From: Minisyncoccota bacterium
GTDB lineage: Bacteria; Patescibacteriota; Minisyncoccia; UBA6257
NCBI GenBank assembly: GCA_028694995.1
Contig: JAQVJU010000002.1
Location: 2,046-66,045 of the forward strand
DNA length: 64,000 nt
Direction of reading: 5' to 3'
Of this stretch, positions 1 through 58,165 are shown piece by piece. How positions within the stretch are numbered: position 1 is the first letter of the stretch; every line of letters begins with the position of its first letter. A model generated the notes under the pieces. That model was not told the DNA's origin. It saw nothing but the letters and a program-made list of their open reading frames with translations, and ran no database searches. A program made the translations under genes and the position numbers.

Positions 1-50
1 GGAATTGTCGGGTAATTAACTATTAAAACCAATAGTTACTTGGTTTTAAG

Positions 51-139
51 TTATCCCCAATAGACTTGACAAGGTTTTTATATTTGCTATACTAATAATG
101 CTGTCGTTTTTGGCTTGCCAAAGGCGACAGCATTTTTTT
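51..139 (+). repeat. Copy 1 of the repeated DnaA-box-like/promoter/hairpin module (TTATCCCCA variant - TTGACA - 16 nt - TATACT - hairpin GCTGTCG..CGACAGC - T7)
   Basis: Read directly. -35 TTGACA at 66-71, -10 TATACT at 88-93. Hairpin 100-131 followed by a T-tract. Near-identical to the modules at 2943, 5903, 6717 and 7563. Confidence 0.7.
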
Positions 140-257
140 ATCTCATATTATTTAGGAAGTTTTATATCTTTAATTCTTGACAAACTTATAATAAAGATAT
201 ATTATAACTCAATTAAGAACTTTGAAAACTTAATAAAAAAAAGAAAGGAGAGAAAAA

Positions 258-1379
258 ATGGAGAAGCTAATTGATTTTTTTCTATTTTTAATAGGAGTAA
301 GAAGAGAAAAGAAAATTCCTGTAAATTTTCAGCCGTCGGTTACTGTTTTAATCCCTGCTTACAAAGAAGAAGAAACAATAAAAGATACTATTTTAAGTAT
401 TCAGGCTCAGAGCTATCAAGTAGATGAAATTATTGTAATAGATGATTGCTCTAAGGACAAGACTGGTTTAATATCAAGATCTCTAGGGGCTAAAGTAGTT
501 CGTATCCCTAAAAATTCAGGGACTAAATCTAGGGCTCAAAATTTTGGTCTTAAGTTTGTTAAAACTGATTTAGTGATTACTGTTGATGCTGATACTATCC
601 TTGATCAAAAAGCGATAGAATTAATAATTCCTGCTATGAGTGATCGCAAAGTGCTTTCAGCTTGTGGGTTTGTTATTCCTCAAGTAATTAAAACTTTTTG
701 GGAAAGATGTCGCTTAATTCAGTATTTGTATTATATTAGTCTTAATAAAAATGCTCAATCTCACTGGCAGGTACCATTAGTGTCTTCAGGTTGTTTTTCA
801 GTTTTTAATACAAAGATGTTAAAAAAAATGGGTGGATTTCCTGAGGGGACGATAGTGGAGGATATGGATTTAACCTGGAGAGCCCATCTTGAAAAGAAAA
901 AAATTAAATTTATACCTGAAGCAGTTTGCTATCCAAAAGATCCAAATAATTGGCAACAATACAAGGCACAGGTAATGCGTTGGAATAGAGGATTTTTACA
1001 ATGTGTAAAAGAATATAAAGTATCATTGATAAAAAATCCTCGCTTATGCTTTTTTGTTGCTTGGTATCTTTTATCAGGGATTATCCAGCCTCTGTATTTA
1101 GGGTTTTTTATTTGGTATGTGTTTTGGTTTTTTTCAACAAAAGCCTATCTAGGGGAAGTAATTTTTATTTTAATATTTTTTGGACTTTTGTTGGAAATGT
1201 TAATTGTGTTTACTTTTGTTCTGATATCAGGAATTCGTTATAAGCACTTTAAAATAGCTTTAACCAGTTTTCCTTGCTATTGGTTAATAAGCCCAATTGA
1301 CACTTATTTGTTTGTAAATGCCCTAATACAAGAATGGGTTTTAGGGAGAAAACTTGAATCATGGGAAAAAGGGCATTGA
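258..1379 (+). CDS. Family 2 glycosyltransferase with C-terminal multi-pass membrane domain (processive polysaccharide synthase-like, PgaC/IcaA/cellulose-synthase-like architecture)
   Basis: N-terminal GT-A fold signatures (IPAYKEEETI, DDCSKD, VDAD = DXD). Hydrophobic C-terminal half with several predicted TM helices. RBS AAAGGAGAG upstream. Confidence 0.75.
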   Translation: MEKLIDFFLFLIGVRREKKIPVNFQPSVTVLIPAYKEEETIKDTILSIQAQSYQVDEIIVIDDCSKDKTGLISRSLGAKVVRIPKNSGTKSRAQNFGLKFVKTDLVITVDADTILDQKAIELIIPAMSDRKVLSACGFVIPQVIKTFWERCRLIQYLYYISLNKNAQSHWQVPLVSSGCFSVFNTKMLKKMGGFPEGTIVEDMDLTWRAHLEKKKIKFIPEAVCYPKDPNNWQQYKAQVMRWNRGFLQCVKEYKVSLIKNPRLCFFVAWYLLSGIIQPLYLGFFIWYVFWFFSTKAYLGEVIFILIFFGLLLEMLIVFTFVLISGIRYKHFKIALTSFPCYWLISPIDTYLFVNALIQEWVLGRKLESWEKGH

Positions 1380-1435
1380 AGGGAGGGATATACTTGATTG
1401 TAAAAAATATAAAAAAAGGAAAGGAGGTGAAATAA

Positions 1436-2209
1436 ATGTACGGAGGACCTCAAACTATATCTGGAAGTATAATTCATATTCTATGTCGTTACCCTATTTT
1501 AGTAGTTCCTATAGCTCTGGGCCTTATCTTTGGAATACCTAACTTATCTCAAGTTGCTGAAGATAGTTTACCTAGCTCAATGATAACTTTTGCTTTTGAT
1601 GATGGGTATTTTTCTACTTATGAAAAAGCTTTTCCTATTTTAGAAAAATATACATTTCCGGCTACGGTTTTTGTAATTTCTTCAGTAATTGGAGAACCAG
1701 GTCATATGACTGCGGAACAAATTCTAGAATTGGCAGATAAAGGATGGGAGATTGGTTCTCATACTGAAACTCATTCTGATTTAACTCAGCTTACTGATGA
1801 ACAATTAAAACATGAGCTTGTAAACTCAAAGCAACATCTTGAAGAACTGGGTTTAATAGTAAAGAACTTTGCCTCTCCTTATGGCAAGTATGACGAAAGG
1901 GTTATTAAAATGATAGCTAAGTATTATGATTCTCATCGAACCGCTTGGCCAGATGGGTTAAATGATTTACCCTTAGATAATTTAAATCGTTATTACTTGA
2001 AATCTGTTTCAGTTGAAGCTAGAACGACTATAGAAGAAGTGAAAGAGTGGGTAATAAAAGCAAAGAATGAAGGGAAATGGTTAATTCTCCTTTTCCATCG
2101 CATTGATGAAACAGGCGATTATAACTGGACCTCAAGGGATTTTGAAGAAATTGTTAAATTTGTGCACGAGGAAAAGTTTAAAGGAGTTTCAATTAAAGAA
2201 ATGAGGTGA
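1436..2209 (+). CDS. Polysaccharide deacetylase (NodB homology / CE4 family)
   Basis: N-terminal TM segment. CE4 motifs TFAFDDGY and GSHTETHSDL. RBS GGAGGTGA 7 nt upstream. Adjacent to the GT2 synthase. Confidence 0.8.
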   Translation: MYGGPQTISGSIIHILCRYPILVVPIALGLIFGIPNLSQVAEDSLPSSMITFAFDDGYFSTYEKAFPILEKYTFPATVFVISSVIGEPGHMTAEQILELADKGWEIGSHTETHSDLTQLTDEQLKHELVNSKQHLEELGLIVKNFASPYGKYDERVIKMIAKYYDSHRTAWPDGLNDLPLDNLNRYYLKSVSVEARTTIEEVKEWVIKAKNEGKWLILLFHRIDETGDYNWTSRDFEEIVKFVHEEKFKGVSIKEMR

Positions 2210-2355
2210 TGATTTTATAAAATGATAAAAGGGAAGATAAATCTTCCCTTTTTAATTTAAACCTTATATATTGACAAAATTGTATAAATGATATATAATC
2301 TTGATATATTTGAACTAGTAACTTGAAAATTAAAAAATGAAAGGAGGTGAAAGAA

Positions 2356-2898
2356 ATGAGAAAAAGATTGTTAATCTTAGTGGTTTTAATGGTATTATTC
2401 TTGGGTGCTTGTAGAGACGGAGCAATAATTCCTTCAGTGACAGAAGATATAGAGATTTGGGTAACTGGCTTTGAGCAAGAGGTATTCTGCAATAACGCTA
2501 AGGGTGTCACCAGGGTTTTTAATGGAGACTTACCTAAAGATTTGACAAGATGTTATGGTCCTCCTAGCTGTTGCCCTCCATGTAATTGCCCAGTATGTGA
2601 AGTATGTGAAGAATGCTCAGAATGTCCAACTTGCCCTTCTTGTGGACCTTGCTGCTGTTATTTGAAATGGGGAAATGTCTACGTTGATTACAAAATGAAG
2701 AATTTAGGGTTAAAGGATTTAACCGTTAAAAATGTTTGTTTTGAAATCACGTTTGAAGACAACACAAAAACTGTTAAATGCGTGGAATTACAAGAAGGTT
2801 TACTAGAGGGAGAAGTAAAAGGTAAACAAGCTAAATTCACTCTCTCTCCTGTCAAGAGAGTGATTTACGTTGTTGTGCAAAAAATAGAATATTATTAA
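2356..2898 (+). CDS. Cysteine-rich lipoprotein (signal peptide + lipobox LGAC; CxxC/CC cluster)
   Basis: Start chosen at the ATG preceded by AAGGAGGTGA. Lipobox L-G-A-C. A 30-residue tract CCPPCNCPVCEVCEECSECPTCPSCGPCCC. Confidence 0.55.
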   Translation: MRKRLLILVVLMVLFLGACRDGAIIPSVTEDIEIWVTGFEQEVFCNNAKGVTRVFNGDLPKDLTRCYGPPSCCPPCNCPVCEVCEECSECPTCPSCGPCCCYLKWGNVYVDYKMKNLGLKDLTVKNVCFEITFEDNTKTVKCVELQEGLLEGEVKGKQAKFTLSPVKRVIYVVVQKIEYY

Positions 2899-2942
2899 AA
2901 CCAAAAGGGACTATATTATATAGTCTCTTTTTCATTTTAAAA

Positions 2943-3031
2943 GTTATCCACAATAGACTTGACAAGGGATTTGGATTTGATATACTAATAATGCTGTCGT
3001 TTTTGGCTTGCCAAGGGCGACAGCATTTTTT
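2943..3031 (+). repeat. Copy 2 of the DnaA-box/promoter/hairpin module (TTATCCACA 2944-2952, TTGACA 2959-2964, TATACT 2981-2986, hairpin 2993-3024, T-tract)
   Basis: Read directly from the sequence. Confidence 0.7.
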
Positions 3032-3072
3032 ATTCCATAGTTTGCGAAATTATTAATTAATGAATAAAAGAC

Positions 3073-3199
3073 TTGACAATTTTTATTTATCATGTATACT
3101 GTTTTGTAGTGGGGTAAGCTTTTCCGGAAGAGCTTATAAAACCTATTTTCCAAAATTTTGGAGGTTTTAAAGTGGCGTTGAAAAACGCCACTTTTTTTT
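3073..3199 (+). ncRNA. Candidate small RNA: consensus sigma70 promoter (TTGACA 3073-3078, TATACT 3095-3100) driving a ~95-nt transcript that ends at the intrinsic terminator GTGGCG-TTGAAAAA-CGCCAC-T8 (3172-3199)
   Basis: Promoter spacing of 16 nt and a perfect terminator. An internal stem AAGCT-TTTCCGGAAG-AGCTT. No ORF above 9 codons. Confidence 0.4.
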
Positions 3200-3408
3200 A
3201 ACTTAATTCCTTGATTGTTTTAAAGAAGATCCTATTATTTATTGATAATATAATAATTAAGATTTACAAATTGAATTATTAAGTATTGATTAATAAAATT
3301 TTCTAATAATGATCTTTAAAATAACTCTTAAGAATTATTTTTTAAATTTAAAATTAAATTTTTAAAAATTTCCTTAAATTTGACAAATTTGTTTTTTATT
3401 TAAAAAAC

Positions 3409-3612
3409 TTGACAAGGACTTGACAAATAAAAAATAATAGAGTATCATGTAAGTACGGTGGGGTTCTCCCCTGGGTCTGCAAAGGCCCAGGGGAGACTAC
3501 TACTAAGTAGATAAACAATAAAAATGGTGGGATGCTCTCTTTTAAACAAATACAAAAGTTTATCTGCTTCCGAGGCAGATTAGTTAAATTGACGTTATTC
3601 GTCAATTTTTTT
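3409..3612 (+). ncRNA. Candidate structured small RNA (~160 nt): duplicated TTGACA (3409-3414, 3420-3425), 17-nt spacer, TATCAT (3443-3448), GC-rich stems, and terminator TTGACG-TTATTC-GTCAA-T7 (3589-3612)
   Basis: A strong 10-bp stem CTCCCCTGGG..CCCAGGGGAG, which is unusual against the AT-rich background. A second stem TCTGCTTC-CGA-GGCAGA. No plausible ORF. The antisense 69-aa ORF 3396..3605 is judged spurious. Confidence 0.45.
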
Positions 3613-3818
3613 AATTAACCACTAGATTAACTATTAGGGATTAAAAAAAGAATATTGCAGGAAGATTAGTGTTTGTGTTTTCCCCATATCAGAAATCCTC
3701 CTAATAGTTCATGATGGGACAATAGATCTATTAAAAGTGATTTTAATTTCCTTAATGATTAATTAAAAGATTATTTTGTTTCCTATGCATTTAATTATTT
3801 CAGATTTTAGTAAACATA

Positions 3819-4298
3819 ATGAATTTGATTAAACATAGAAAATTTTTACAATTATTATCATTTTTAGTAATAATAATTTGTTCTTTGTTATTTTTAATAA
3901 ATGATGTTGATGCTAAAAGAGGTTGTTGTTCTTGGCATGGCGGAGTATCTCATTGTGACTCATCGGTTGGGGGATATGTTTGTAATGATGGCACCTATAG
4001 TCCTTCTTGTACTTGCGGGGTTATAATCCCTGTTCCTATTCCTTCCCCAACTACTCTTGAGCCTACTACAACGACTACTAAACCTACAACTACAACAATA
4101 ATTGGTATAACACCCGCTGCTGTATTAGAAACAGAAATTCAAGAAAAAAACCTAGGAATAGAGGAAGAACTAGAATTTTCAGCTTCTGAAAAATTAATGG
4201 CACAAGTACATAAAGAAAACATTGGTATTTCTGCTTGGTGGTGGATAATAGGCATAGGGGCTATATCTTATTTGTTTGTCTATAAATTTAAAAAATAA
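3819..4298 (+). CDS. Secreted Cys/His-rich protein with Pro/Thr-rich linker and C-terminal TM anchor followed by basic tail (KFKK)
   Basis: N-terminal hydrophobic signal or anchor. Motif GCCSWHGGVSHCDSSVGGYVCNDGTYSPSCTC. Linker TTTTTKPTTTT. C-terminal TM segment. Confidence 0.5.
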   Translation: MNLIKHRKFLQLLSFLVIIICSLLFLINDVDAKRGCCSWHGGVSHCDSSVGGYVCNDGTYSPSCTCGVIIPVPIPSPTTLEPTTTTTKPTTTTIIGITPAAVLETEIQEKNLGIEEELEFSASEKLMAQVHKENIGISAWWWIIGIGAISYLFVYKFKK

Positions 4299-4334
4299 AA
4301 AACTAAAGGTCGAAAATTAATGAATTAAAAAAAT

Positions 4335-5846
4335 ATGAATAAAAAATTTCTTACAAAAACATTTGCAATTGCAATGGTATTAAGTTTATTACTTTCTAAT
4401 GGATTGATGTTAGGATTGGAGAGAGCAGAAGCAAAAGTAAGAAAAGAAGACCCTAGTAAAAATGGAAATGGGAATGGGAATGATGAATTATATCTTTGTC
4501 ATTTTGAAGATGAAGGAGATAATCCTTATACAAAGATACTAGGGTTTGAGAAGAATAGCATAGCTGGCGAGCATGATAAAGACGAAGATGATATTATTCC
4601 TAGTTATCTTTATACTTCAGACTGTGATGTGGAAAATCATAACTGTAAACTAAAAAAAATAGATTGGGGGAATTCTAAGACGCAAGGAAGTGTTTTGGGA
4701 GACTCTATTAATCTTGATGGGCATTTATGGCAAGGGTCACAAGAATTAGCTTCAATTATTGGGGATAGCACAAATATTAAGGTTTCTTTTTCAGATCCCC
4801 TTATGGCATATGTTATAGATCTTAAAATAAAAGAAAAAGATTCAAAAGGAAAAATATTATCTGAAAAAGATTATGCTTCTAAATGCCAAGGTCCAGAGGG
4901 TTGTACTCTTTCTCCGGAAGAAGGAATTAAGTTTTACTCTGTAAGTTGGGATCTGCAAAAAGTTAACAAATTTCACTATGAGTGTTATTATCCTGGTAAA
5001 AATTTGGAGAGTGGGCAAGACATTTTAAATAATAATTGCGAGGTTCCCTCAGAAAATGAAAATGGGGAAGGGAATGGGGAAGGGAATGGAGAAGGGGATG
5101 GAGAAGGGAATGGAGGAGGGAATGGAGAAGGAACTACAACTACTACAACAACAAGACCTGGTCCTACAGGTTCACATATTCCACCACAAGAAGCTCATGG
5201 GGAAGGCTCTTTAGGAGAACCTGGCCCTGGGGAGGGTATTGTAGCTGGTGCTGCTTGTGTTCCTTATATCCAAGAATATATTCAATATGGAGCTGATAAT
5301 GATCCATTTGAAGTTAGGAAATTACAAATCTTCTTAAATGGATATTTGGGATTGAATTTAGATGTTAATGGAATTTATGATTTAGAAACATTTGAAGCTG
5401 TAAAAACATTCCAACTTATGTTCAAGGATGATATTTTAGCTCCTTGGGTTGCAAATGGATGCTTACCTTCAAAAGAAATAGCTACGGGTTATGTTTATCG
5501 AACTACTAGTTGGGCGATTAATAAAGTTTTTTGCCCAGGAATGGAAATAGATATTTCTGATGAAATATGTTTTGGCTTAGGTGAAGGATTAGTTTTAGGA
5601 GAATCTATTGCCTTAGCTGATGATGGCTCAATGTCAGAAGGAGATATTTTAGATTTTCCTGTTAGTTCTGAACAAGAACCAGAAGAAGAAGTAATGGAAA
5701 TTTCAGAAACTGAAGATATAGAAACAACAGAATTAGAAGAAACAGAAGAAGAAACAGCAACTAATAAAGGAGCCATAATAGCTTTATTAGTTGTTTTAGC
5801 CTTAGGTGGCTTAGCTTACTTTATCTTTAGAGGAAAACGAACTTGA
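4335..5846 (+). CDS. Large secreted surface protein: signal peptide, GNGNGNG and GEGNGEGNG repeats, Thr7 linker, PG_binding_1-like domain, acidic E/T-rich tract, C-terminal TM anchor + RGKRT tail
   Basis: The segment VRKLQIFLNGYLGLNLDVNGIYDLETFEAVKTFQ matches the peptidoglycan-binding (PG_binding_1) consensus. The C-terminus AIIALLVVLALGGLAYFIFRGKRT forms a TM anchor plus basic tail. Confidence 0.6.
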   Translation: MNKKFLTKTFAIAMVLSLLLSNGLMLGLERAEAKVRKEDPSKNGNGNGNDELYLCHFEDEGDNPYTKILGFEKNSIAGEHDKDEDDIIPSYLYTSDCDVENHNCKLKKIDWGNSKTQGSVLGDSINLDGHLWQGSQELASIIGDSTNIKVSFSDPLMAYVIDLKIKEKDSKGKILSEKDYASKCQGPEGCTLSPEEGIKFYSVSWDLQKVNKFHYECYYPGKNLESGQDILNNNCEVPSENENGEGNGEGNGEGDGEGNGGGNGEGTTTTTTTRPGPTGSHIPPQEAHGEGSLGEPGPGEGIVAGAACVPYIQEYIQYGADNDPFEVRKLQIFLNGYLGLNLDVNGIYDLETFEAVKTFQLMFKDDILAPWVANGCLPSKEIATGYVYRTTSWAINKVFCPGMEIDISDEICFGLGEGLVLGESIALADDGSMSEGDILDFPVSSEQEPEEEVMEISETEDIETTELEETEEETATNKGAIIALLVVLALGGLAYFIFRGKRT

Positions 5847-5866
5847 AGGTTAGAAATTGGATAAAA

Positions 5867-5894
5867 ACAGGGCTAAATATAGCCCTGTTTTTTA
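5867..5894 (+). terminator. Intrinsic terminator of the 4335..5846 gene (ACAGGGCT-AAATAT-AGCCCTGT-T7)
   Basis: Perfect 8-bp GC-rich stem plus a T-tract. Confidence 0.7.
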
Positions 5895-5902
5895 TTTCTT
5901 AA

Positions 5903-5999
5903 GTTATCCACAAAAGACTTGACAAGGTTTTTATATTTGCTATACTATTAGTGCTGTCATTTAGAGAAGCTTGCTTCAATGAATGACAGCATTTTTTTT
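5903..5999 (+). repeat. Copy 3 of the module (TTATCCACA 5904-5912, TTGACA 5919-5924, TATACT 5941-5946, variant hairpin GCTGTCATT..AATGACAGC 5953-5990, T8)
   Basis: The stem is conserved and extended by compensatory changes while the loop is replaced. Confidence 0.7.
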
Positions 6000-6157: not shown

Positions 6158-6694
6158 ATGGAAGAGAGAAAAAAGAAAGTTTTTATTTTAATTTTTGCTG
6201 TGGTTTTTATATTCATTTTAGTAGATTATGTAAATTGGAGATTATCCCATAATTGGGAGATTGTAGATACCAATTTACCAGTTGAAACCATAAACAGCAC
6301 CGTATGGAGAAGCGCAAGTATAGATATACTTGATCCTATCAAATCTCCTCCAAAAAGTTATGAGTATTCAAATCTTAGGATAGCGGCATTTAAGGTACGG
6401 TACCCTAAAGCTAAGGGAGGAGGATATGTTCATGAAGTTTTTCTTAGGGAGTGGTTTAAGAGGAGTAACTTAAAAGTTCGCTATACGGGCTTTGAAGGGA
6501 TACCGGATTTTTATATTGCTGTAGAATTCATACAGGGAAGAATGGAAATCATCAGTGATAGCAAGTTATATAATTATAAAGGAGAAATCTTTATAGAATT
6601 ATTTTCCAATAATAAGAATTTACTGGCTCAAAAAAGAATTAAGGTAAACATAAATAACAAACCGCCAGAGGTAAAAGAATTAACAGGGCTTTAA
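6158..6694 (+). CDS. Hypothetical N-terminally membrane-anchored protein, paralog A of a tandem pair
   Basis: Strong RBS AAGGAGGA. N-terminal TM helix. Shares the motifs YPK.K, NLK and F..V.FI.GR..I...Y.GEI.I.L with the 6967..7539 product. Confidence 0.5.
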   Translation: MEERKKKVFILIFAVVFIFILVDYVNWRLSHNWEIVDTNLPVETINSTVWRSASIDILDPIKSPPKSYEYSNLRIAAFKVRYPKAKGGGYVHEVFLREWFKRSNLKVRYTGFEGIPDFYIAVEFIQGRMEIISDSKLYNYKGEIFIELFSNNKNLLAQKRIKVNINNKPPEVKELTGL

Positions 6695-6706: not shown

Positions 6707-6716
6707 CATTTCTTGA

Positions 6717-6806
6717 GTTATCCACAAAAGACTTGACAAGGTTTTTAAATTTGCTATACTAATAATGCTGTCGTTTTTGGCTTGCCAGAAGCGGCAGCAT
6801 TTTTTT
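6717..6806 (+). repeat. Copy 4 of the module (TTATCCACA 6718-6726, TTGACA 6733-6738, TATACT 6755-6760, hairpin GCTGTCG..CGGCAGC with a U-G wobble, T7)
   Basis: Read directly from the sequence. Confidence 0.7.
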
Positions 6807-6966: not shown

Positions 6967-7539
6967 ATGAAAAAGGTTTTTATAGTTATTCTAATTATAA
7001 TTATAGGGTTATTTTTAATAGATTTTATAGGTTATGTAATAAAATCAAGCTATAAAGAGAATAAGGAGCTGGGGGGAAGTTGGGAAATCGAAAGTTTAGA
7101 CCTGCCAATCATAATAAGAAAAAACTGTATCGTAGTGGGGGGTCCAAGTTGGGAACCAGAAGACCCTTTGCCCTCAAGAGTTGAAAGGGATGTATTTTTA
7201 GAAATGAGGGTAGCCAATTTTAGAATATACTACCCTAAAACAAAAAATATAGTCCATGAAATTGATCTCCAAATGTGGGAAAAGCAGGGAAACTTGAAGT
7301 TATATGTCGCTAGACCTGAAGAGTCGAACCCCTTCAAAATGAGTACTGTAAAGTTTATAGAGGGGAGAGTAGATATCTGGCTTAGAATGGAAGTCGGTAA
7401 GTATGAGGGGGAGATTCATATTCAGCTAATTAATAATGACGGGATATTAATAGGTGAAGGCAAGGCCTTTGTGGAAGTAAATATAGAAAAGGGGGTGCTA
7501 GAGATACTAGAAGAAGAATTTAATATAACAGGGTCTTAA
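6967..7539 (+). CDS. Hypothetical N-terminally membrane-anchored protein, paralog B of the tandem pair
   Basis: A ~150-bp upstream region, including a TTGACT-17-TATAAT promoter and RBS, is about 90% identical to that of 6158. The proteins are much more diverged than these flanks. Confidence 0.5.
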   Translation: MKKVFIVILIIIIGLFLIDFIGYVIKSSYKENKELGGSWEIESLDLPIIIRKNCIVVGGPSWEPEDPLPSRVERDVFLEMRVANFRIYYPKTKNIVHEIDLQMWEKQGNLKLYVARPEESNPFKMSTVKFIEGRVDIWLRMEVGKYEGEIHIQLINNDGILIGEGKAFVEVNIEKGVLEILEEEFNITGS

Positions 7540-7562
7540 GGCTCTGTTTTTATTATTTCTGA

Positions 7563-7652
7563 GTTATCCACAAAAGACTTGACAAGGTTTTTATATTTGC
7601 TATACTAATAATGCTGTCGTTTTTGGCTTGCCAGAAGCGGCAGCATTTTTTT
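7563..7652 (+). repeat. Copy 5 of the module (TTATCCACA 7564-7572, TTGACA 7579-7584, TATACT 7601-7606, hairpin 7613-7644, T7)
   Basis: Read directly from the sequence. Confidence 0.7.
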
Positions 7653-18630: not shown

Positions 18631-18704
18631 ATTTTTTATTGATTTGTATTTTATTTAATGATATAGTATTATCTAATAGGGTTTTCGTCAAGTCTTTTTT
18701 TATT

Positions 18705-18777
18705 GCTCCCGTAGCTCAATTGGTAGAGCAACAGCCTTTTAAGCTGGCGGTTGCGCGTTCAAGTCGCGCCGGGGGCA
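18705..18777 (+). tRNA. tRNA-Lys (anticodon UUU), CCA not encoded
   Basis: Cloverleaf folded by hand. Acceptor GCTCCCG/CGGGGGC, D-arm GCTC-AATTGGTA-GAGC, anticodon loop CTTTTAA (U33, UUU, A37), T-arm GCGCG-TTCAAGT-CGCGC, discriminator A. Confidence 0.85.
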
Positions 18778-18788
18778 CAATTAAAAAA

Positions 18789-20084
18789 ATGAATTACAAA
18801 AGGATTTTAATTGTTTTTATTGTTTTTTTGGCGACTGTTTTAGCGTCAATTTTTATTTACCCTCAAGGGATAACTAGTTTAGGGATAAAATTGCCTAAAT
18901 TCTTTGATAAGGAATTTAGTTTTGGTTTGGATATTTCTGGAGGCACTTTATTAATTTATGAGGCAGATTTAAGCAATGTAGAGCCTGAAGATTATTCTTC
19001 AGCGATGACTGGATTAAGAGATGTGATTGAAAGAAGAATTAATTATTCAGGGGTTAAAGAACCACGAATAACAGCAAACAAGAGTGGAGAAGTTTGGCGT
19101 TTAACTGTTGAATTGGCTGGAATTAAAGATATTCAAGAAGCAATAAAGATGATCGGAGAAACTCCTTTTTTAGAATTTAGGGAATTACGTGAAGAAGAAG
19201 AAACCAAAGAACTGTTAGAAATGGAAGAAATGTCTGAAGATGTAGACCCTTATTTCAAACCAACTATTTTAACAGGAAAATATTTAAAAAGAGCAGAAGT
19301 TAATTTTGAATCAACCACTTCTTTGCCAGTTATTAATTTATCTTTTAATGATGAAGGGGCTGAGATTTTTGCTGAATTGACCAAAGAGAATATTGGTAAA
19401 CCATTGGCGATTTATTTAGATGGTTATCCAATTAGCATCCCTACAGTTCAGGAAGAAATTCCTTCTGGCATGGCTCAAATTTCTGGTCAGTTTACCTTAG
19501 CTGAAGCAAAAGAATTAGTTTTAAGATTAAATCAGGGGGCTTTGCCAGTGCCAATAAATTTAATATCTCAACAATCTGTTGGCGCTATCTTAGGCGACCA
19601 ATCTATGGAAAAAATTGTCCAGGCAGCTTTTTGGGGTTTTATTTTGGTGATTTTATTTATGATTGCTGTTTATCGTTTGCCAGGGTTATTAGCTTCTTTA
19701 TCTTTGATTATTTATGTTGTTTTGACTTTGAGTATATTTAAGTTTATTCCAGTGACTTTGACTTTGACTGGGATTACTGGATTTATTCTTTCTATTGGCA
19801 TGGCAGTAGATACTAATGTTTTGATTTTTGAACATGCTAAAGAGGAAATTAAAAAGAATAAACCTTTGAAAATTGCCATGGAAGATGGTTATCAAAAATC
19901 ATGGCCAGCTATTCGGGATTCTAATATTGCTACAATTATATCAGCAATTATTCTTTATTACTTTACTTCTAATATGATTAGGGGATTTGCACTTACTTTG
20001 GCTATTGGTGTGGGTACAGGATTGTTAACTGCAATTTTCATTACGAAGTTATTCTTAGGAGTGGTTTATAGTAAAAAAAGTTAA
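18789..20084 (+). CDS. secD: Protein translocase subunit SecD
   Basis: Motif LGLDISGGT and a C-terminal 6-TM domain. The ORF-track start at 18639 is rejected because it runs through the tRNA. Confidence 0.85.
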   Translation: MNYKRILIVFIVFLATVLASIFIYPQGITSLGIKLPKFFDKEFSFGLDISGGTLLIYEADLSNVEPEDYSSAMTGLRDVIERRINYSGVKEPRITANKSGEVWRLTVELAGIKDIQEAIKMIGETPFLEFRELREEEETKELLEMEEMSEDVDPYFKPTILTGKYLKRAEVNFESTTSLPVINLSFNDEGAEIFAELTKENIGKPLAIYLDGYPISIPTVQEEIPSGMAQISGQFTLAEAKELVLRLNQGALPVPINLISQQSVGAILGDQSMEKIVQAAFWGFILVILFMIAVYRLPGLLASLSLIIYVVLTLSIFKFIPVTLTLTGITGFILSIGMAVDTNVLIFEHAKEEIKKNKPLKIAMEDGYQKSWPAIRDSNIATIISAIILYYFTSNMIRGFALTLAIGVGTGLLTAIFITKLFLGVVYSKKS

Positions 20085-45997: not shown

Positions 45998-46023
45998 AAC
46001 CGGCTTGGATTAACCAGCCGGTT
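45998..46023. terminator. Bidirectional intrinsic terminator (A-tract - AACCGGCTTGG-ATTAA-CCAGCCGGTT - T-tract) between convergent genes
   Basis: GC-rich 10-bp stem flanked by A and T tracts. Confidence 0.65.
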
Positions 46024-46028
46024 ATTAT

Positions 46029-46334
46029 TTAATATTCGTTATATCCTCCTTTTTGTATAATTTCTTTGCTTTTTTTACCTTTTTCATTTCCACAAATATA
46101 AATCCTATAATTATTTCTTGCCTCCGGAGAAAGTTTTCCTCCTTCAGGAATATTCAAGTCTATATCATATATTTCCTTCATATCTCGAAAGGCTTTTTTC
46201 CAGGTTTTCTTAACTTTCTTTAAAATTTTCTGGAAAATAATTCGGTCTTCCTTTTTGTGGTAAGTGGATAAACTTAGATTTAGTTCTCCTGATTCTAAAT
46301 TCATCCACCCCTCTAGCCATATTAACCTTTTCAT
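46029..46334 (-). CDS. Small hypothetical protein
   Basis: ORF with RBS AAAGGAGGTAAAAG. Confidence 0.3.
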   Translation of the reverse strand: MKRLIWLEGWMNLESGELNLSLSTYHKKEDRIIFQKILKKVKKTWKKAFRDMKEIYDIDLNIPEGGKLSPEARNNYRIYICGNEKGKKSKEIIQKGGYNEY

Positions 46335-46346
46335 CTTTTACCTCCT

Positions 46347-46595
46347 TTATTTTTTATAAACTTGATAATCCGCACTAAAAGGCACAAAGGTAGACTCATA
46401 ATATCCCTTAGCCCTGTTATACTTCCTTGCAGCTATTTTCTTAGCTTGGGCTAAGGAGAACCCACCTTGCCAGATGTGATACTCATCATCAGGCTCGATC
46501 ACTATCAGGTGGTATACAAATGGCCATTTTCTACTCTGGCTTTTCCTTTCTGGAATCGAGAATAATTTCAATTGCTCTTGGAATTTAGAATCCAT
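46347..46595 (-). CDS. Small hypothetical protein
   Basis: ORF with a GAGG RBS. Co-oriented with the 46029 ORF. Confidence 0.3.
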   Translation of the reverse strand: MDSKFQEQLKLFSIPERKSQSRKWPFVYHLIVIEPDDEYHIWQGGFSLAQAKKIAARKYNRAKGYYESTFVPFSADYQVYKK

Positions 46596-46735
46596 TTGCT
46601 TTTCCTCTCTTTCTTTTTAAATTTTCAAAATACTGATATTATTATATCAGTTATAAAATATTTTGTCAATGGAAAGTAAATGGTAAATCAGTAAAAAATA
46701 TGATAAAATGTTTTAAGTAAAAGATTAATTCAAAT

Positions 46736-47911
46736 ATGAGAGTTAGTTATTCTAGTTTAGAAAACTTTAAACAGTGCCCTCTAAAGTATAAATATTCACA
46801 AATAGATAAATTAAAAGAGCCTAAAAGCAAAGAGGCTGTTTTTGGCACTTATATCCACAAAGTTCTTAAATGGTTTTATCAAAAAGACCCTCACTTCCCT
46901 ACTCTAGATGCTTTATTAGATTATTATAAAGAATCTTGGCCTAAAAAATCAGAAGGATTTGAATGGCAAGATCCAGAAGAAGAAAATTCATATTTTAAAG
47001 AAGGAATTAGAATCTTAGAAGAATATTATAAAACTAATATCCCCCACCAGACTTCTATCTTGGATTTGGAAACTAGGTTTGAGGTTACCATAGATGAAGA
47101 TCCAGACAAACCTAATAAAAAACACATTTTAACTGGTATTATTGACCGAATAGATAAATTACCTGATGGGAGAATGGAGATAATAGATTACAAGACTGGT
47201 AAACGAATTGCTTCTCAAAGAGAAACAGATTCTAGTGCCCAATTATCTTTGTATGCTATTGGAGTTAAAAATCGTTGGCCCAGAACAGATTTAAAAAATC
47301 TGTCTTTAAGTTTGTATTTTCTTAAATTTAATGAAAAGATTCAATCTCAAAGAACAGAAGAAGATTTAGAAAAAAGCAAAGAAGAAGTTATTAAAACAAT
47401 TCATAAGATAGAAAAAAGTAGTTTTGAACCCAGGCCATCGCCTTTATGTGGTTGGTGCGGTTATCGGAATATTTGTCCAATTTGGAAACACTTGTATGAA
47501 ATAGAAAATCAAATCAATGGAGAAAATGTTAAAGAAAAAATAGATGAATACTTTAAGCTCAAAGAAAAAAAAGAGAAAATAGAAGAAGAGCTTTGTAATT
47601 TAAAAAATTGCATAGAAGATTATAGCCATGAAAAAGGTCTAAAGAGAGTTTTTGGAGAAAATGGGTATTTTAGTCGTACGGTTCATAACAAAGTTTCATA
47701 CAATAAAAAACAATTAAAAGAAGTATTAGAGCCTTTAGGAAAATGGGAAGAAATCCTAGGCATAGACCAAAAAAGACTAGACAAGGTTTTAAAAGAAATC
47801 CCTCAAGAATTAAGAGATAAGGTAAAAGCAGCTGAGAAAATAGAAAAAAAATATAAATATCTCACTTCAAATAATGTAAGCAAGAAAGAATTAGAAGAAG
47901 AATTAGAATAA
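46736..47911 (+). CDS. PD-(D/E)XK nuclease superfamily protein, Cas4/RecB-like with predicted Fe-S cluster (1 N-terminal + 3 C-terminal Cys)
   Basis: Motifs GIIDRID, EIIDYKTGK and a Q..S.Y-like segment. N-terminal Cys in FKQCP plus C-terminal CGWCGYRNICP. Confidence 0.6.
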   Translation: MRVSYSSLENFKQCPLKYKYSQIDKLKEPKSKEAVFGTYIHKVLKWFYQKDPHFPTLDALLDYYKESWPKKSEGFEWQDPEEENSYFKEGIRILEEYYKTNIPHQTSILDLETRFEVTIDEDPDKPNKKHILTGIIDRIDKLPDGRMEIIDYKTGKRIASQRETDSSAQLSLYAIGVKNRWPRTDLKNLSLSLYFLKFNEKIQSQRTEEDLEKSKEEVIKTIHKIEKSSFEPRPSPLCGWCGYRNICPIWKHLYEIENQINGENVKEKIDEYFKLKEKKEKIEEELCNLKNCIEDYSHEKGLKRVFGENGYFSRTVHNKVSYNKKQLKEVLEPLGKWEEILGIDQKRLDKVLKEIPQELRDKVKAAEKIEKKYKYLTSNNVSKKELEEELE

Positions 47912-47914
47912 TTA

Positions 47915-48289
47915 TTAATTACACCTAGTATTATAAGTATAGCCATTAGCTTCAGCTTCTTCTCGAGATTTAAAATAGATTTTATTTTCTTCTTTTAAGC
48001 TATTAGCTAAGCTACATTCAACAGGATAATAGTATTTTCCTCGAGAACTGGCTACAAAAGGAAATTCTTTTTGTGCTTCTTTTTTAGCTTCAATTTGAGC
48101 TAATCCTTGTTCTAAATCAAGGATTAATTCTTTTTCAATAATGATTGGCGGACGACTAAGAATATTAGCGCCAAGAATAATTCCTGAGGTAAAAGAAAAA
48201 ACAATAGTCAAAAAAATAAAACTGGAGAGCCAGAAATGCTTTTTGACAAAATCAATAATTTTTGCTAATATTTTTAAACAGTGGGGCAT
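47915..48289 (-). CDS. Membrane-anchored protein with C-terminal Ada-type zinc-binding domain
   Basis: N-terminal TM segment. C-terminus YYPVECSLANSLKEENKIYFKSREEAEANGYTYNTRC resembles the Ada metal-binding domain consensus. Confidence 0.4.
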   Translation of the reverse strand: MPHCLKILAKIIDFVKKHFWLSSFIFLTIVFSFTSGIILGANILSRPPIIIEKELILDLEQGLAQIEAKKEAQKEFPFVASSRGKYYYPVECSLANSLKEENKIYFKSREEAEANGYTYNTRCN

Positions 48290-48318
48290 AATATTTAATT
48301 TTTAATTTTTAATACAAT

Positions 48319-48615
48319 ATGGCAAGGACAAAAGCTGGTGGTTCAACAAAATTAGGTAGAGATTCACGTCCAAAAAGTCTTGGTCTTAAGGTAGCTGACG
48401 GTCAAGAAGTAAGAACGGGTAATGTTTTAATCAGACAAAGAGGAACTAAATGGCATCCAGGCACAAATACTGGTCTTGGCGAAGATGATACAATCTTTTC
48501 TCTTAAAGATGGAATTGTAAAGTTTTCAACTAAAAGAAAAAAAAGTTTTACTGGTAAGATTAAAAGAGTTAGCGTGATAAACGTTATTCCTTTGGTTTTA
48601 AAGGAACAGTCTTAA
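48319..48615 (+). CDS. rpmA: 50S ribosomal protein L27
   Basis: Motif [16 protein letters not shown]...[11 protein letters not shown]. Confidence 0.85.
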
Positions 48616-49048
48616 TTCTAACTTTTAAACTAGCTGATATTTCAGGATAAAGATTTACATTAATTTCATAATCCCCTTGTTCTTTTAAGGGGTTTTTTAA
48701 TTCAATCTGATTTTCTTTTAAAGAGATGCTTTTGTTTTTTAATTCCTCAATGATTTTTTTAGCATTAACAGAGTCATAAGCTTTTTTTCCTTTTTCTGAG
48801 AATTTAAGAGGAATTTCCAATACAAGGTTTTTTAAATCTTCTGCTGTCTTTAGGGCCAGTTCTTTTTCCTGCTTTTCTTTTTGTACTTTTAATTCTTTTT
48901 GCTCAGAAACCTTTTGTACAATTTTCTCATCAGCTCTTTGAGCTAATTTATTGGGAAAGAGATAATTTAAAGCATAACCAATGGCGACTTTTTTAATTTC
49001 TCCTTTTTTTCCTAATTCAGAAACATCTTGTAATAAATAAACTTTCAT
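48584..49048 (-). CDS. rplI: 50S ribosomal protein L9
   Basis: Motif [26 protein letters not shown]. Confidence 0.85.
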
Positions 49049-49057
49049 AATTAATTT

Positions 49058-50359
49058 TTAATTTTGTTCAGGAAGAATAGTTCCTCTGGGCATTATTTGC
49101 AGAGGGGTTATTAATTCATCAATGGCTGCTTGCAATTGATTGTCTTTTGTTGGATCTATCTTAGAATAAGTGCCTAATTCTTCTTGATTTTCTAATTCTA
49201 TCATAATATCTGGCTCTAATCCATTATTCTGGATAATTGTTTCTTTTGGAGTAAGCCAACGAGAGATGGTTATCTTTAAGCTATTATCATCTTTTAAGGT
49301 TACTAATTCTTGAACCGAGCCTTTACCAAATGTCTTAGTGCCAATTAATTTTACTCCCCGATTATCTCTTAAAGCCCCAGCTAATATTTCAGAAGCTGAG
49401 GCAGTACCTTCATTAACTAAAACCACAGTGGGGATATTTTTTAACAAATTTTGAGCTAAACTAACACGAAAAACTTTACTTTCTTCTTTACCAAAATCTT
49501 CTTTAAGAATAATATCTCCATTAGATAAAAACCAGCCGCTAATATTAACCACAGCATCCAAATACCCTCCAGGATTATTGCGTAAATCCAAAACAAGTCC
49601 TTGGGGCTTGGCTCTGGATATTTCCAAAGCTGTTTGGTAAAAATCAATTTTTAAAGGTAGATTAAAATTATAAATCTTTAGATAAGCAATATTGTTTTCT
49701 AACATTTGCCAGCTAACAGTTGGAATTTGAATTTTTTCCCTAGTTAATTCTATTTCTTCTGTTACATTTGTAGAAGGACGATAAGTGGTTAAAGAAACTT
49801 TAGTTCCAGCTTGGCCACGTATTAATTGTGAAGCTTTAGTAGTTGAAAAATTCACTGTTTCTAAATCATTAATTTTTAAAATAATATCATTTGGTTTTAA
49901 ACCAGCTTTTTCAGCTGGAGTGTTTGGCAATGGGGCTACGACTACTAAATAACCATCTTTTTTTCCTATTTCCATGCCAATACCAAAAAACTCTCCTGAT
50001 AATTCATCTGAAAGTTCTTGAGTTTCTTCAGTTGTTAAAAAATCAGAATAAGGATCTTCTAAAGAATTAATCAATCCTTTTGTAGCCCCAATAATCATTT
50101 TTTCAGGATCTAAATCATAACGGTCAACATATTTTTCCAAAACTACTTTCCAAGTGTCCCAAAAAATACCCATATCAGAATCAGGCACAGTAACTGGCGC
50201 TTGTTTGTTAATTATCTTTTCAAAAGGAGAAGGCAGATTTGCTTGCCAGCCCCATTGGGCACCATGCATAAATCCTAAACCCCACATGGCAAGAAACAAA
50301 ACAATGCCTAAGGTTATGAGACCTACTTCTTTAAAGTTTATCTTAGAGTTATTTTTCAT
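49058..50359 (-). CDS. ctpA: Carboxyl-terminal processing protease (S41 family, PDZ domain)
   Basis: PDZ segment (GIGMEIGKKDGYLVVVAPLPNTPAEKAGLKPNDIILKIND). S41 catalytic segment (GTASASEILAGAL...TFGKGSVQ). Confidence 0.85.
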   Translation of the reverse strand: MKNNSKINFKEVGLITLGIVLFLAMWGLGFMHGAQWGWQANLPSPFEKIINKQAPVTVPDSDMGIFWDTWKVVLEKYVDRYDLDPEKMIIGATKGLINSLEDPYSDFLTTEETQELSDELSGEFFGIGMEIGKKDGYLVVVAPLPNTPAEKAGLKPNDIILKINDLETVNFSTTKASQLIRGQAGTKVSLTTYRPSTNVTEEIELTREKIQIPTVSWQMLENNIAYLKIYNFNLPLKIDFYQTALEISRAKPQGLVLDLRNNPGGYLDAVVNISGWFLSNGDIILKEDFGKEESKVFRVSLAQNLLKNIPTVVLVNEGTASASEILAGALRDNRGVKLIGTKTFGKGSVQELVTLKDDNSLKITISRWLTPKETIIQNNGLEPDIMIELENQEELGTYSKIDPTKDNQLQAAIDELITPLQIMPRGTILPEQN

Positions 50360-51746
50360 TTTTTTTCAAAAAATTAATAAATTGATAAGGTAAGTTTGCT
50401 ATTTTTCCAGGGCCAGTGAAGATAACAACATCATTTTTTTTAAGAATACCATAAAGGTTTTTAAATAATTCTGATGAATCATTATTTAAATGAATTTGTG
50501 TTTTTTTAAGAGTTTTTTGTTTTAAGATTTGCTCATATATTATCTTTTCATCGATGCCTTTAATTGGTTTTTCATTAGCTGGATCAATAGGTAATAAGAA
50601 TAAAACATTACAATTTTTTACAGCTAAGGCATATTCTTTGTAAAGAAAGGAGATACGAGAATAACGATGAGGTTCTAGAATTAAAATGATTCTTCTCTTA
50701 CCAAATACCTGATGAGCCATTCTTAAGAGGCTTTTTATTTCTGTTGGATGATGGGCATAATCATCAACGATTGCTATTTTCTGATTATAAACAACACTAA
50801 ACCTTCTTTCAACCCCAGAAAATGTCTTAATGTGTTTTAAAGAATCTTTAAAAGGAATTCCAATAATTTTAGCAATTAAAATAGCCCCTAAGGCATTGTA
50901 AATATTCTCTTTTTCTGGAACAACAAGATGAAGTTTTTCTTCAAATTTTCCTTGAAAATACAAATCAGCAGTTGACTTATTTTTTAGATATTGAATATTC
51001 TTTACTGATAAATCTGTTTTTTTATTAATACCAAAATTAATAATTTGTTTTTTGGTTTTTTTACAAAGAGTTTTTAAGAATTCATCATCATTATTTAAAA
51101 CAATAAAACCTGAAAGGCTTTGTTCAGCAAATATCTGAAAAGCTTTTTTTAAAAGTGAAAAATCAGTTTTATATGGTCCTTGAGCAAATAAATGGTCATT
51201 GTCTACATTAGTAATCAATGGTAGATAAGAAGGGGTTTTTAAAAAAGATTTATCATGTTCATCAGTTTCAATTATTGCATATTCTCCATTTGTCCATTCA
51301 CTACCTAAAGGATAGTCTTTAGTCTTAGCGCCTAAATAAACTATTGGTTTTAGTCCTTGTTTTTTTAAAATATGAGCAGTCATGGCAACAGTAGTGCTTT
51401 TGCCATGAGAACCAGCAATACTAATAATCTTTTTGTCATTTAAAAGCTTTATTAAATAATCAAAACGATTAAAAACAGGGATTTTTTTCTTTTTAGCTTG
51501 TAAAAGTTCAATATTGTTTTTAGGAATTGCTGAAGAATAAACAACAGTTTTTGGTTTTTGAATATTTTCTATCTGATGACCAATAAATATTCTACTTCCT
51601 TTTTGTTCTAATTTCTTTTTAGCTGAAAAATCTTTTTTATCAGATCCTGAAATATAATATCCTTTTTCTAGCAGAAGATTAGCTAAGGCAGTCATGCCTG
51701 AGCCACCTATTCCAATTAAGTGAATATGCTGTTTTTTAATGCTCAT
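50349..51746 (-). CDS. murC: UDP-N-acetylmuramate--L-alanine ligase
   Basis: N-terminal IHLIGIGGSGMTALA and Mur ligase central P-loop (GSHGKSTT). Confidence 0.8.
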   Translation of the reverse strand: MSIKKQHIHLIGIGGSGMTALANLLLEKGYYISGSDKKDFSAKKKLEQKGSRIFIGHQIENIQKPKTVVYSSAIPKNNIELLQAKKKKIPVFNRFDYLIKLLNDKKIISIAGSHGKSTTVAMTAHILKKQGLKPIVYLGAKTKDYPLGSEWTNGEYAIIETDEHDKSFLKTPSYLPLITNVDNDHLFAQGPYKTDFSLLKKAFQIFAEQSLSGFIVLNNDDEFLKTLCKKTKKQIINFGINKKTDLSVKNIQYLKNKSTADLYFQGKFEEKLHLVVPEKENIYNALGAILIAKIIGIPFKDSLKHIKTFSGVERRFSVVYNQKIAIVDDYAHHPTEIKSLLRMAHQVFGKRRIILILEPHRYSRISFLYKEYALAVKNCNVLFLLPIDPANEKPIKGIDEKIIYEQILKQKTLKKTQIHLNNDSSELFKNLYGILKKNDVVIFTGPGKIANLPYQFINFLKKNEK

Positions 51747-51841
51747 TTAAGTAATTATATAGTTTTTAAGCTGTTTTTGTCAATTTTGGAATTTATCTTT
51801 TATTGGATAATTAAGTAAAAATAATATAAAATAGGATTAAT

Positions 51842-52399: not shown

Positions 52400-52408
52400 T
52401 AAGTATTT

Positions 52409-54353: not shown

Positions 54354-54361
54354 AAAACATT

Positions 54362-54832: not shown

Positions 54833-54834
54833 CT

Positions 54835-56789: not shown

Positions 56790-56802
56790 CAAGAACATTC
56801 AG

Positions 56803-58156: not shown

Positions 58157-58165
58157 GTTATTGAT

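Follow-up and report, generated by a model that had tools for sequence, protein, structure and literature searches.

What is made by a membrane glycosyltransferase and a deacetylase that are encoded side by side in an uncultured bacterium, and is such a pair complete without further partners? The question is raised by positions 258 to 2898 of a stretch of 64,000 nt from a Minisyncoccota bacterium (assembly GCA_028694995.1, contig JAQVJU010000002.1), the whole of which is called the window here. An original prediction made from the DNA letters had placed three open reading frames (ORFs) on the + strand in one compact exopolysaccharide module resembling that for poly-beta-1,6-N-acetylglucosamine (PNAG). 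All three are present as described, with the quoted motifs in place: a minimal membrane synthase of family GT2 with 373 amino acids (aa; 258-1379), a membrane-anchored deacetylase of CE4/NodB fold with 257 aa (1436-2209) and a hypervariable Cys-rich lipoprotein of 180 aa (ORF3, 2356-2898). The first two are separated by 56 nt, in keeping with the spacing given earlier (CE4 57 nt later). Chance ORFs are unlikely, given 257-373 codons in 30% GC DNA, Pfam E values of 1e-25 to 1e-28 and hundreds of homologues. The window, with ~30% GC, is bacterial and encodes SecDF, sigma-70, enolase and PPDK. Since the CE4 protein is 100% identical to a protein in a "Candidatus Pacebacteria" metagenome-assembled genome (MAG), the organism is assigned to the candidate phyla radiation (CPR; Pacebacteria), which bears out the small-genome, episymbiont-like organism that had been guessed. 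With somewhat better than even confidence, positions 258-2209 are read here as a self-contained two-gene cassette for a synthase-dependent exopolysaccharide; the lipoprotein is assigned to a unit of its own.

The association of the two enzymes is retained far beyond this genome. A search with the GT2 alone, at one genome per species, yielded 49 loci, 44 of which hold a family-level GT2 ending in WxKGH (labels L001-L060 denote related loci from the homologue searches). In 24 of these 44, spread over more than ten phyla, a CE4 gene starts at most 200 nt downstream on the same strand, and a CE4 lies within 6 kb in 29 by tblastn. When loci were seeded with CE4 homologues, the GT2 was directly upstream in 7/7. 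Paired loci are found in Patescibacteria, Bacillota, Aerophobetes, Nitrospirota/Thermodesulfovibrionales, Stahlbacteria, Bdellovibrionales, Bacteroidetes, Thermoplasmatales and ANME-1. Co-conservation of the proposed three-gene module therefore holds for synthase and deacetylase and fails for the lipoprotein, which is absent from the 49 related loci. In two close relatives, radical SAM/SPASM (PqqD-type) genes adjoin the pair (L050, 2240-3535; L054, 3973-5382). Nothing specific to the GT2-CE4 pair in Patescibacteria was found in the literature, and no paper was found that describes the GT2 family or the N-terminal module of its partner discussed below.

The synthase was characterized by its motifs, homologues and predicted structure. 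It matches Pfam PF00535 (99 bits, E 3e-28), PF13632 (72 bits) and Glyco_transf_21 (32 bits). On the + strand the motifs DD (residues 62-63; nt 441-446), VDAD (residues 109-112, with DAD at 110-112; nt 582-593), VSSGCF (nt 780-797), ED (residues 201-202; nt 858-863), QVMRW (residues 238-242; nt 969-983) and the C-terminal WEKGH (nt 1362-1376) can be located. An alignment of 34 homologues has DD, DxD, VSSGCF, ED, QxxRW and the extreme C-terminus W-x-K-G-H-stop invariant, and the WxKGH ending was retained in every additional GT2 locus inspected. The database search gave 1,909 homologues, mostly of 355-390 aa, from Patescibacteria, Nitrospirota, Chlorobi, Aerophobetes, Marinimicrobia, ANME-1/Methanophagales and others; to our knowledge, no synthase of so few residues has been shown to translocate its product. 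The top plasmid matches, homologues of Streptomyces and Nonomuraea with 41% identity that end near ...YEKGR, have no CE4 nearby and carry no annotation, and are therefore uninformative on function.

The assignment of this protein to the PgaC/IcaA type did not hold. PgaC_IcaA (TIGR03937) is indeed the best curated NCBIfam model, matched over residues 16-343, and yet it scores 131.3 bits against a cut-off of 422.3; NodC reaches 68 bits (equivalog cut-off 550), CelA 34, the lipid-carrier transferases ~25, and the Pfam chitin synthase family 25 bits. PgaC of E. coli MG1655 is 27% identical over the catalytic domain only, with an hhalign probability of 99.8% and membrane parts that are unalignable, so that catalytic motifs are common to both while scores and membrane architecture are not of PgaC/IcaA type. 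Sequence searches of the PDB returned no solved PgaC-like chain. Judged by these profiles, the GT2 is not a PgaC/IcaA orthologue.

The AlphaFold model of the GT2 (pLDDT 91, pTM 0.87) agrees with the membrane-integrated processive class (BcsA, hyaluronan synthase (HAS), Chs), the GT-A domain, interface and membrane helices superposing on solved synthases. In the structure comparison the highest scores were obtained with Chlorella virus HAS (30.6 over 335 residues, 2.6 A) and BcsA (30.6 over 340), followed by PcManGT, a minimal archaeal enzyme (28.7 over 297), Xenopus HAS1 (27.3 over 328) and Chs1 (21.0 over 330). DPMS, ArnC and GtrB reached 14.9-15.4 over the GT-A domain only, and the Foldseek ranking was consistent with this order. 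The GT2 therefore does not group with the lipid-linked sugar transferases, the outcome named in advance as fatal to a synthase reading. A dolichol- or undecaprenyl-phosphate transferase (DPMS, GtrB or ArnC) was considered for it and rejected for its lower structural and profile similarity.

The membrane part of the GT2 is small. The QxxRW helix is followed by two strongly hydrophobic helices (261-293 and 301-327) and a less hydrophobic one (331-361), and the N-terminus has no transmembrane (TM) helix, only a short helix at 2-11. Since positively charged segments flank helix 331-361 on both sides (GIRYKHFK and LGRKLESWEKGH), it is read as an interface helix that would leave the C-terminus in the cytoplasm. 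By analogy, the invariant terminal W-x-K-G-H probably sits at the position of the gating loop in BcsA and HAS; a profile of the C-terminal 70 residues gave no match in the PDB, so the equivalence is kept as a proposal. Regarding a translocation channel, a synthase-like fold including membrane helices is present, but just two clear TM helices accompany the interface helices. A partner helix or oligomerisation is probably needed for a complete channel.

The second gene encodes a candidate for the enzyme that modifies the chain. Its Pfam match, PF01522, is strong (89 bits against a cut-off of 23, E 3e-25). On the + strand can be observed the motifs FDDG (residues 54-57; nt 1595-1606) and HTETH (residues 109-113; nt 1760-1774), a third motif SPYG from which the usual Arg is absent (nt 1874-1885), and LLFHRI (nt 2087-2104) with H221 at 2096-2098. 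D55, D56, H109 and H113 are invariant in 30 homologues; H221, present in the window protein, is nearly invariant (at least 90%) in a 26-sequence alignment. The model (pLDDT 91) consists of helices 11-18 and 20-38 followed by the NodB barrel. R18 ahead of the TM helix and acidic residues behind it, together with the signal or lipobox sequences carried by diderm-lineage homologues, indicate an N-in/C-out topology with the catalytic domain placed outside the cytoplasm. The earlier description as a TM-anchored NodB/CE4 deacetylase is thus sustained, with its catalytic residues intact, a TM helix at ~20-38 and an extracytoplasmic position by topology.

Its pairing with PgaB or IcaB was not sustained. 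The CE4 scores 39.5 and 45.8 bits with the PgaB and IcaB models (TIGR03938 and TIGR03933) against cut-offs of 321.9 and 248.35, and 41 bits with the NodB equivalog against 240. Its structural neighbours are generic (xylan esterases, chitin and peptidoglycan deacetylases, PplD), PgaB appearing from rank 30 only and IcaB at rank 44. The protein comprises the N-terminal module and a NodB domain only, with no PgaB-type C-terminal glycoside hydrolase domain. Both enzymes fall outside the PgaC/IcaA and PgaB/IcaB families, and by its modelled structure the CE4 resembles PgaB and IcaB no more than it does chitin, peptidoglycan or xylan deacetylases; PNAG is therefore one candidate product among several.

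It should be noted that the most constant companion of the GT2 is not the deacetylase domain but what precedes it. Residues 1-39 of the CE4 (1436-1552, + strand; MYGGPQTISGSIIHILCRYPILVVPIALGLIFG) form a module with a cytoplasmic tail, MYGGPQTISGSIIHILCRYP, followed by a TM helix, as supported by profile, regular expression, reverse metagenome search and modelled helices. Its consensus is M-Y-x-P-x(3-5)-[SC]-S-x-[LI]-[LI]-H-L-L-x-[KR]-x-P-[IV]-L-V-V and then the TM helix. No model in Pfam or NCBIfam covers it. A hidden Markov model (HMM) built from 20 N-termini and applied at E<1e-3 matched a single ORF in each of 30 of the 44 loci, with weak matches in 4 further ones. Twelve of the 30 positive loci are non-seed, and 6 more non-seed matches came from related loci. 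Every match lies on the strand of the GT2 and within ~3 kb of it, and a six-frame background translation of 588,000 aa gave no other match. Among the GT2 loci in which the module is missing, four lack flank on the expected side. Nine loci (L005, L009, L020, L025, L026, L032, L034, L035 and L039) hold the module without a CE4.

The association was also examined in reverse, by scanning metagenome contigs for a degenerate DNA pattern that had been written by hand to represent the module. Of 40 pattern matches, 14 pass the module HMM; a family GT2 (38-54% identity, reaching residue 373) stands beside the module in 9/9 of those with enough flank, while the other five are cut by contig ends. Among the 26 chance pattern matches in these contigs none has a GT2 or CE4 alongside. 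The module is thus the constant partner of the GT2 family and the CE4 its commonest cargo; physical contact between module and synthase is suggested by this co-occurrence.

Neighbouring ORFs of the related loci were clustered, and three more partners were recognized in diderm lineages: c2, secreted and of ~155 aa, which no Pfam or NCBIfam model covers; c3, with an SLT lytic transglycosylase domain; and c7, which is OmpA-like. The module start is common to the CE4s of Patescibacteria and Bacillota, to c3 and c7, and to several stand-alone proteins of 76-121 aa. As the most constant partner of the GT2, fused to CE4, SLT or OmpA-like domains or standing alone, it may play a role like that of PgaD or IcaD. 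The pair had been described as lacking its usual partners. No PgaD, IcaD, PgaA or IcaC was matched among the neighbours by NCBIfam or Pfam, and a non-homologous TM module is present instead; the synthase is probably partnered after all, as the CE4 N-terminus is a conserved TM module that tracks the GT2 across phyla.

The diderm versions add a secreted GH18 with an fn3 domain, c2, which has no family, and the module fused to SLT or OmpA-like domains. Features of this version are seen at L017 (2816-4582), L020 (8688-10457, - strand), L028 (7390-9027) and L030 (1077-2897), and in L016, L017, L020, L023, L024, L027, L029-L032, L035 and L040. A four- to five-gene, envelope-spanning version of the system is suggested by such loci.

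Genomic comparison within Pacebacteria delimits the cassette. A promoter-like TTGACA-17-TATTAT (177-205, 11/12 consensus matches) and a ribosome-binding site AAAGGAGAG (~244-252) precede the GT2, and a terminator-like hairpin with T-run (~2227-2258) follows the CE4, all on the + strand. Two sister genomes, L059 and L060 (Pacebacteria GCA_028718665.1 and GCA_028695015.1), carry an alternative cassette at the same site (2604-5867), encoding a 237-aa secreted protein, a 465-aa GT2 and a GH113 protein (beta-mannanase family). The flanks are conserved: window 2-255 is 92.5% identical to L059 2349-2600, window 2899-3818 is 93.7% identical to L059 6667-7583, and the promoter-to-start-codon stretch matches that ahead of the other cassette at ~98% identity. 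The left-hand identity takes in the promoter and ribosome-binding site and ends at the start codon; the right-hand identity sets in at the terminator (~2229) and continues through the promoter, ribosome-binding site, ATG and signal peptide of ORF3 before diverging. By its breakpoints, the exchangeable unit is therefore taken to be GT2 plus CE4 (~258-2228), two genes. This different cassette between flanks of 92-94% identity bears out the accessory nature claimed for the region. The 465-aa GT2 is 24% identical to that of the window and scores 97 bits with the PgaC_IcaA profile. The gene content of the alternative cassette suggests that the sister strain makes a different polymer. It also gives independent support to a role in polysaccharide synthesis, since a synthase-type GT2 is found there, at the equivalent site, together with a polysaccharide hydrolase.

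Taken together, we moderately favour an exported N-acetylhexosamine polymer, partly deacetylated outside the membrane, as the product of the pair, and the polymer is probably a secreted, partly deacetylated chain of N-acetylglucosamine (GlcNAc). In the mechanism proposed, the GT2 would be embedded in the membrane, its GT-A domain facing the cytoplasm, and would polymerise a uridine diphosphate (UDP)-activated N-acetylhexosamine, most likely UDP-GlcNAc, and thread the chain outward. Its C-terminal W-x-K-G-H would, judging from position and the positive-inside rule, probably act as a gating loop over the active site. The CE4 would be tethered to the synthase through its conserved N-terminal tail and TM helix, and the module may in addition complete or stabilise the small TM part of the GT2, in the manner of PgaD, IcaD or the BcsB anchor; both suggestions derive from co-occurrence. 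The outward NodB domain, whose catalytic residues are present, would then strip some acetyl groups from the emerging polymer. The cassette, running from one promoter and ribosome-binding site to one terminator, appears to be exchanged en bloc between related Pacebacteria strains and so would set a strain-variable surface glycan.

Several observations weigh against this reading. With two clear TM helices and interface helices, the GT2 has fewer than any synthase known to translocate unaided; its QxxRW motif is present too in some glycolipid transferases; and the failure of its C-terminal profile to match the PDB counts against the gating loop. About 15 of the 44 GT2 loci have no CE4, and the module was undetected in 6 GT2 loci despite adequate flank. 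In four loci (L007 7226-8020, L010 7040-7816, L013 5318-6076 and L049 499-1233) the CE4 has lost catalytic or metal-binding residues (His-His or Asp-Asp) and kept the module, so deacetylation is not always required, and what is conserved as a necessity would seem to be tethering and not catalytic activity; such proteins are possibly pseudo-enzymes with a structural role.

The sugar and linkage of the product can be approached through profiles and neighbours. The closest curated GT2 profile, PgaC/IcaA, is a point for beta-1,6 linkage. A GalE-like epimerase beside the GT2 in 3 loci makes N-acetylgalactosamine a possible donor; GH18 and GHL6 hydrolases and the epimerase adjoin the GT2 in some lineages. 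A beta-1,4-GlcNAc polymer resembling chitin or chitosan, or else short chito-oligomers, with the CE4 acting as chitin deacetylase, is hinted at by the secreted GH18 (chitinase family) beside the operon in 4 Nitrospirota loci, by faint Chitin_synth_2 matches, by the resemblance of the GCFS motif to a chitin synthase motif, and by chitin and peptidoglycan deacetylases ranking ahead of PgaB and IcaB among the structural neighbours of the CE4. We nevertheless regard it as unlikely: the PgaC_IcaA profile is well ahead of NodC and of chitin synthase in bits, the 4 GH18 loci come from closely related lineages and so represent few independent events, and the window has no GH18.

A further alternative is that the GT2 is non-processive or short-chain, glycosylating a membrane lipid or lipid-linked glycan as do PcManGT, GT21 and HpnI, with the CE4 deacetylating a flipped GlcNAc-lipid outside; this we hold to be rather improbable. 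Superposition of 335-340 residues, membrane helices included, on true polymer synthases speaks for processivity, as do the envelope-spanning or peptidoglycan-related diderm partners (SLT, OmpA-like, secreted c2), the glycoside hydrolase neighbours, the GT2 and GH113 hydrolase of the site-equivalent cassette, and curated lipid-transferase profiles that score far under PgaC_IcaA. These outweigh, in our judgement, the two TM helices, the Glyco_transf_21 match and the precedent of GT2 and deacetylase pairs that act on lipids (HpnI/HpnK). That the CE4 is a peptidoglycan deacetylase protecting the cell wall beside a GT2 of an unrelated pathway, as its JGI (Joint Genome Institute) name "peptidoglycan/xylan/chitin deacetylase" and the PgdA-type enzymes among its structural neighbours might imply, is very improbable and was rejected, given a same-strand adjacency kept in more than 10 phyla, a module that tracks the GT2 even without CE4, and a shared promoter and terminator with a joint swap.

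The secreted-polymer reading being preferred, a wider proposal can be made more tentatively, at rather less than even confidence: the GT2 family and its ~39-residue module constitute an undescribed minimal synthase system of many bacterial and some archaeal phyla. In it, the module would be a portable docking helix that completes a two-TM synthase and recruits a lineage-specific outer enzyme (deacetylase, lytic transglycosylase or peptidoglycan-binding domain), and in CPR bacteria the surface-glycan locus would be exchangeable, with the cassette as one of its alleles, and could determine specificity for hosts or phages.

The third gene stands apart from the cassette. A Cys-rich lipoprotein gene does lie downstream, as had been noted: ORF3 has a lipoprotein-type signal, MRKRLLILVVLMVLFLGAC, and 18 Cys, mostly in a CxxC/CPxC-rich stretch. 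Its start is the ATG at 2356 and not the GTG at 2347, as GGAGGTG precedes 2356 and conservation with a related genome runs through the ATG. Its inclusion in the module was not upheld. A promoter of its own, TTGACA-17-TATAAT (2271-2299, 12/12 matches, conserved in L059), stands after the terminator of the operon, followed by the ribosome-binding site GGAGGTG (2343-2349); a further terminator-like hairpin lies after the gene (2903-2931), all on the + strand. ORF3 was found neither in L001-L049 nor in L053-L056, following the CE4 only in the closest relative (L050/L051), and a homologue of ~53-54% aa identity is retained downstream of the alternative cassette in L059 and L060. A role as third subunit was rejected on these grounds. 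ORF3 is best described, from its sequence context, as a resident, independent and hypervariable surface lipoprotein gene in a separate transcription unit.

No Pfam family matches ORF3, and its own family is small, with 19 representatives among 1.8 billion proteins and, in a set of 5.8 billion, three clusters. Members (P0238-P0256) share a lipobox, a short N-terminal domain with VTGFEQEV.C, a CxxC/CPxC/CE.C repeat linker that varies greatly in length and, at the C-terminus, a conserved domain of ~80 aa with LKWGDL.VDF...FEDGT. Between strains, signal peptide and promoter are near-identical, and the mature part is only ~50% identical, which suggests a surface protein under diversifying selection or a metal- or disulfide-rich stalk.

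Further features are found around the locus. Copies of a 91-nt element flank it on the left (48-138) and right (2941-3031), 92% identical to each other and on the + strand; the element also flanks the L059 cassette. It consists of a near-consensus promoter, TTGACA-16-TATACT, with a 17-bp hairpin and T-run directly behind it. Further + strand copies lie at 5901-5997, 6716-6805 and 7562-7651, making five in the first 8 kb and none elsewhere in the 64 kb, each upstream of a gene for a secreted or membrane protein. Relatives carry it as well (L059/L060 with 4 copies, L050 with 6, L054 and L055). Possible functions are those of a tiny RNA, of an attenuator or antitermination site, or of a substrate for recombination at the variable locus. 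Positions 2899-3818 are 920 nt without a + strand ORF of at least 50 aa and are conserved like the coding flanks; two promoter-to-terminator units, ~3073-3200 and ~3409-3615, the latter with a GC-rich hairpin at ~3461-3500, are candidate small RNAs that match no Rfam family. Rfam searches of window 1-4000 at gathering and E-value thresholds gave chance-level matches only.

Downstream lie four more genes (ORF4 to ORF7: 3819-4298, 4335-5846, 6158-6694 and 6967-7539). ORF4 is secreted and Cys-rich (GCCSWHGGVSHC...), with a Thr/Pro linker and a C-terminal TM helix, and is 92% identical at the aa level in L059. ORF5 has a weak PG_binding_1 match, GNGEG-type repeats and a central region whose length varies by strain (503 vs 795 aa); ORF6 and ORF7 are paralogous membrane-anchored proteins, each with the 91-nt element ahead of it. 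Farther away, the mechanical SecD ORF (18639-20084, TTG start 18639) overlaps tRNA-Lys(UUU) at 18705-18778 on the same strand, so the true start of SecD must be behind the tRNA. The GC skew, strongly positive (0.16-0.33) to ~46 kb, is about zero to ~60 kb and then negative; genes also switch orientation where it changes (~46000-60000), and a replication origin or terminus may be located there.

What is understood of synthase-dependent polysaccharide systems comes from few models: cellulose, PNAG, alginate, Pel and hyaluronan. If confirmed, the present system would offer a compact model for the assembly of a polymer channel and the coupling of modifying enzymes, its obligatory-looking partner being a single helix that moves between fusions. 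It would likewise account genetically for surface polymers of GlcNAc type in many of the uncultured phyla without pga or ica loci. For episymbiotic CPR bacteria, differences between strains in host or phage specificity have a candidate determinant in a glycan cassette that can be swapped precisely and lies beside hypervariable surface proteins. Host attachment by the locus, as raised in the original prediction, is speculation. The cultured archaeal parasite Ca. Microsyncoccus archaeolyticus carries the cassette (L007) with a catalytically degenerate CE4, and extracellular material has been described where Ca. Microsyncoccus-type cells attach to methanogens (PMC10936435); the link to attachment is circumstantial.

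Among known systems, pgaABCD of E. coli (PgaC-PgaD with PgaB) is the first to be compared. It likewise combines a GT2 with D, DxD, ED and QxxRW, the nearest in curated profiles, with an extracytoplasmic CE4 acting on the product and a small membrane partner on which the synthase depends; the end of PgaC also has a W...RG motif, RWVSPDRGILRG. The window GT2 differs in lacking the two N-terminal TM helices of PgaC, and no PgaA or PgaD homologue is present, the partner helix being fused to the deacetylase. The CE4 has no GH153 domain and is membrane-anchored instead of being an outer-membrane lipoprotein, and no cyclic diguanylate (c-di-GMP) element is evident. PgaC and IcaA require the non-homologous helpers PgaD and IcaD, and pga-like operons without pgaA and pgaD have been described; the GT2 family and module are not in that work (Bundalovic-Torma et al. 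2020, PMC7112194). The staphylococcal IcaA-IcaD and IcaB, monoderm-type, resemble the locus in joining a GT2, a small membrane helper and a surface CE4 for partly deacetylated PNAG. They differ in a separate IcaD with two TM helices, an IcaC that has no counterpart here and a secreted IcaB, a weak structural match that is not membrane-anchored, and the window proteins fall under the family cut-offs.

In BcsA-BcsB a single TM anchor of the periplasmic partner packs on the synthase and guides the polymer, and a cognate hydrolase is encoded in the operon (BcsZ; cf. GH18 or GH113 in related loci). BcsA, however, has eight TM helices and PilZ, the BcsB anchor is C-terminal and of unrelated sequence, and the product is glucose-based. 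Class I HAS (Chlorella virus HAS and streptococcal HasA) polymerises and translocates with one protein and has a W-G-T-R gating-loop motif after the third interface helix, to which W-x-K-G-H would be analogous by position; it differs in having 4-6 TM helices, 417-568 aa, an alternating copolymer and no deacetylase partner. NodC-NodB combines a small GT2 with C-terminal membrane helices and a NodB-fold deacetylase on GlcNAc chains, but NodB is cytoplasmic, and the outward-facing CE4 of the window, along with the low NodC score, sets the present pair apart. PcManGT, a minimal cellulose-synthase-like mannosyltransferase of Pyrobaculum, is 19% identical, is linked to N-glycan synthesis and has no known deacetylase or module partner. 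Capsule and O-antigen switching also places alternative biosynthetic cassettes between conserved flanks in related strains; here, by contrast, the units are synthase-type, of two or three genes, in a CPR genome, with breakpoints exactly at the start codon and terminator. The system is therefore a variant of the synthase-plus-deacetylase theme, in which the fusion of the partner helix to the deacetylase and the swapping of a two-gene cassette between strains are new.

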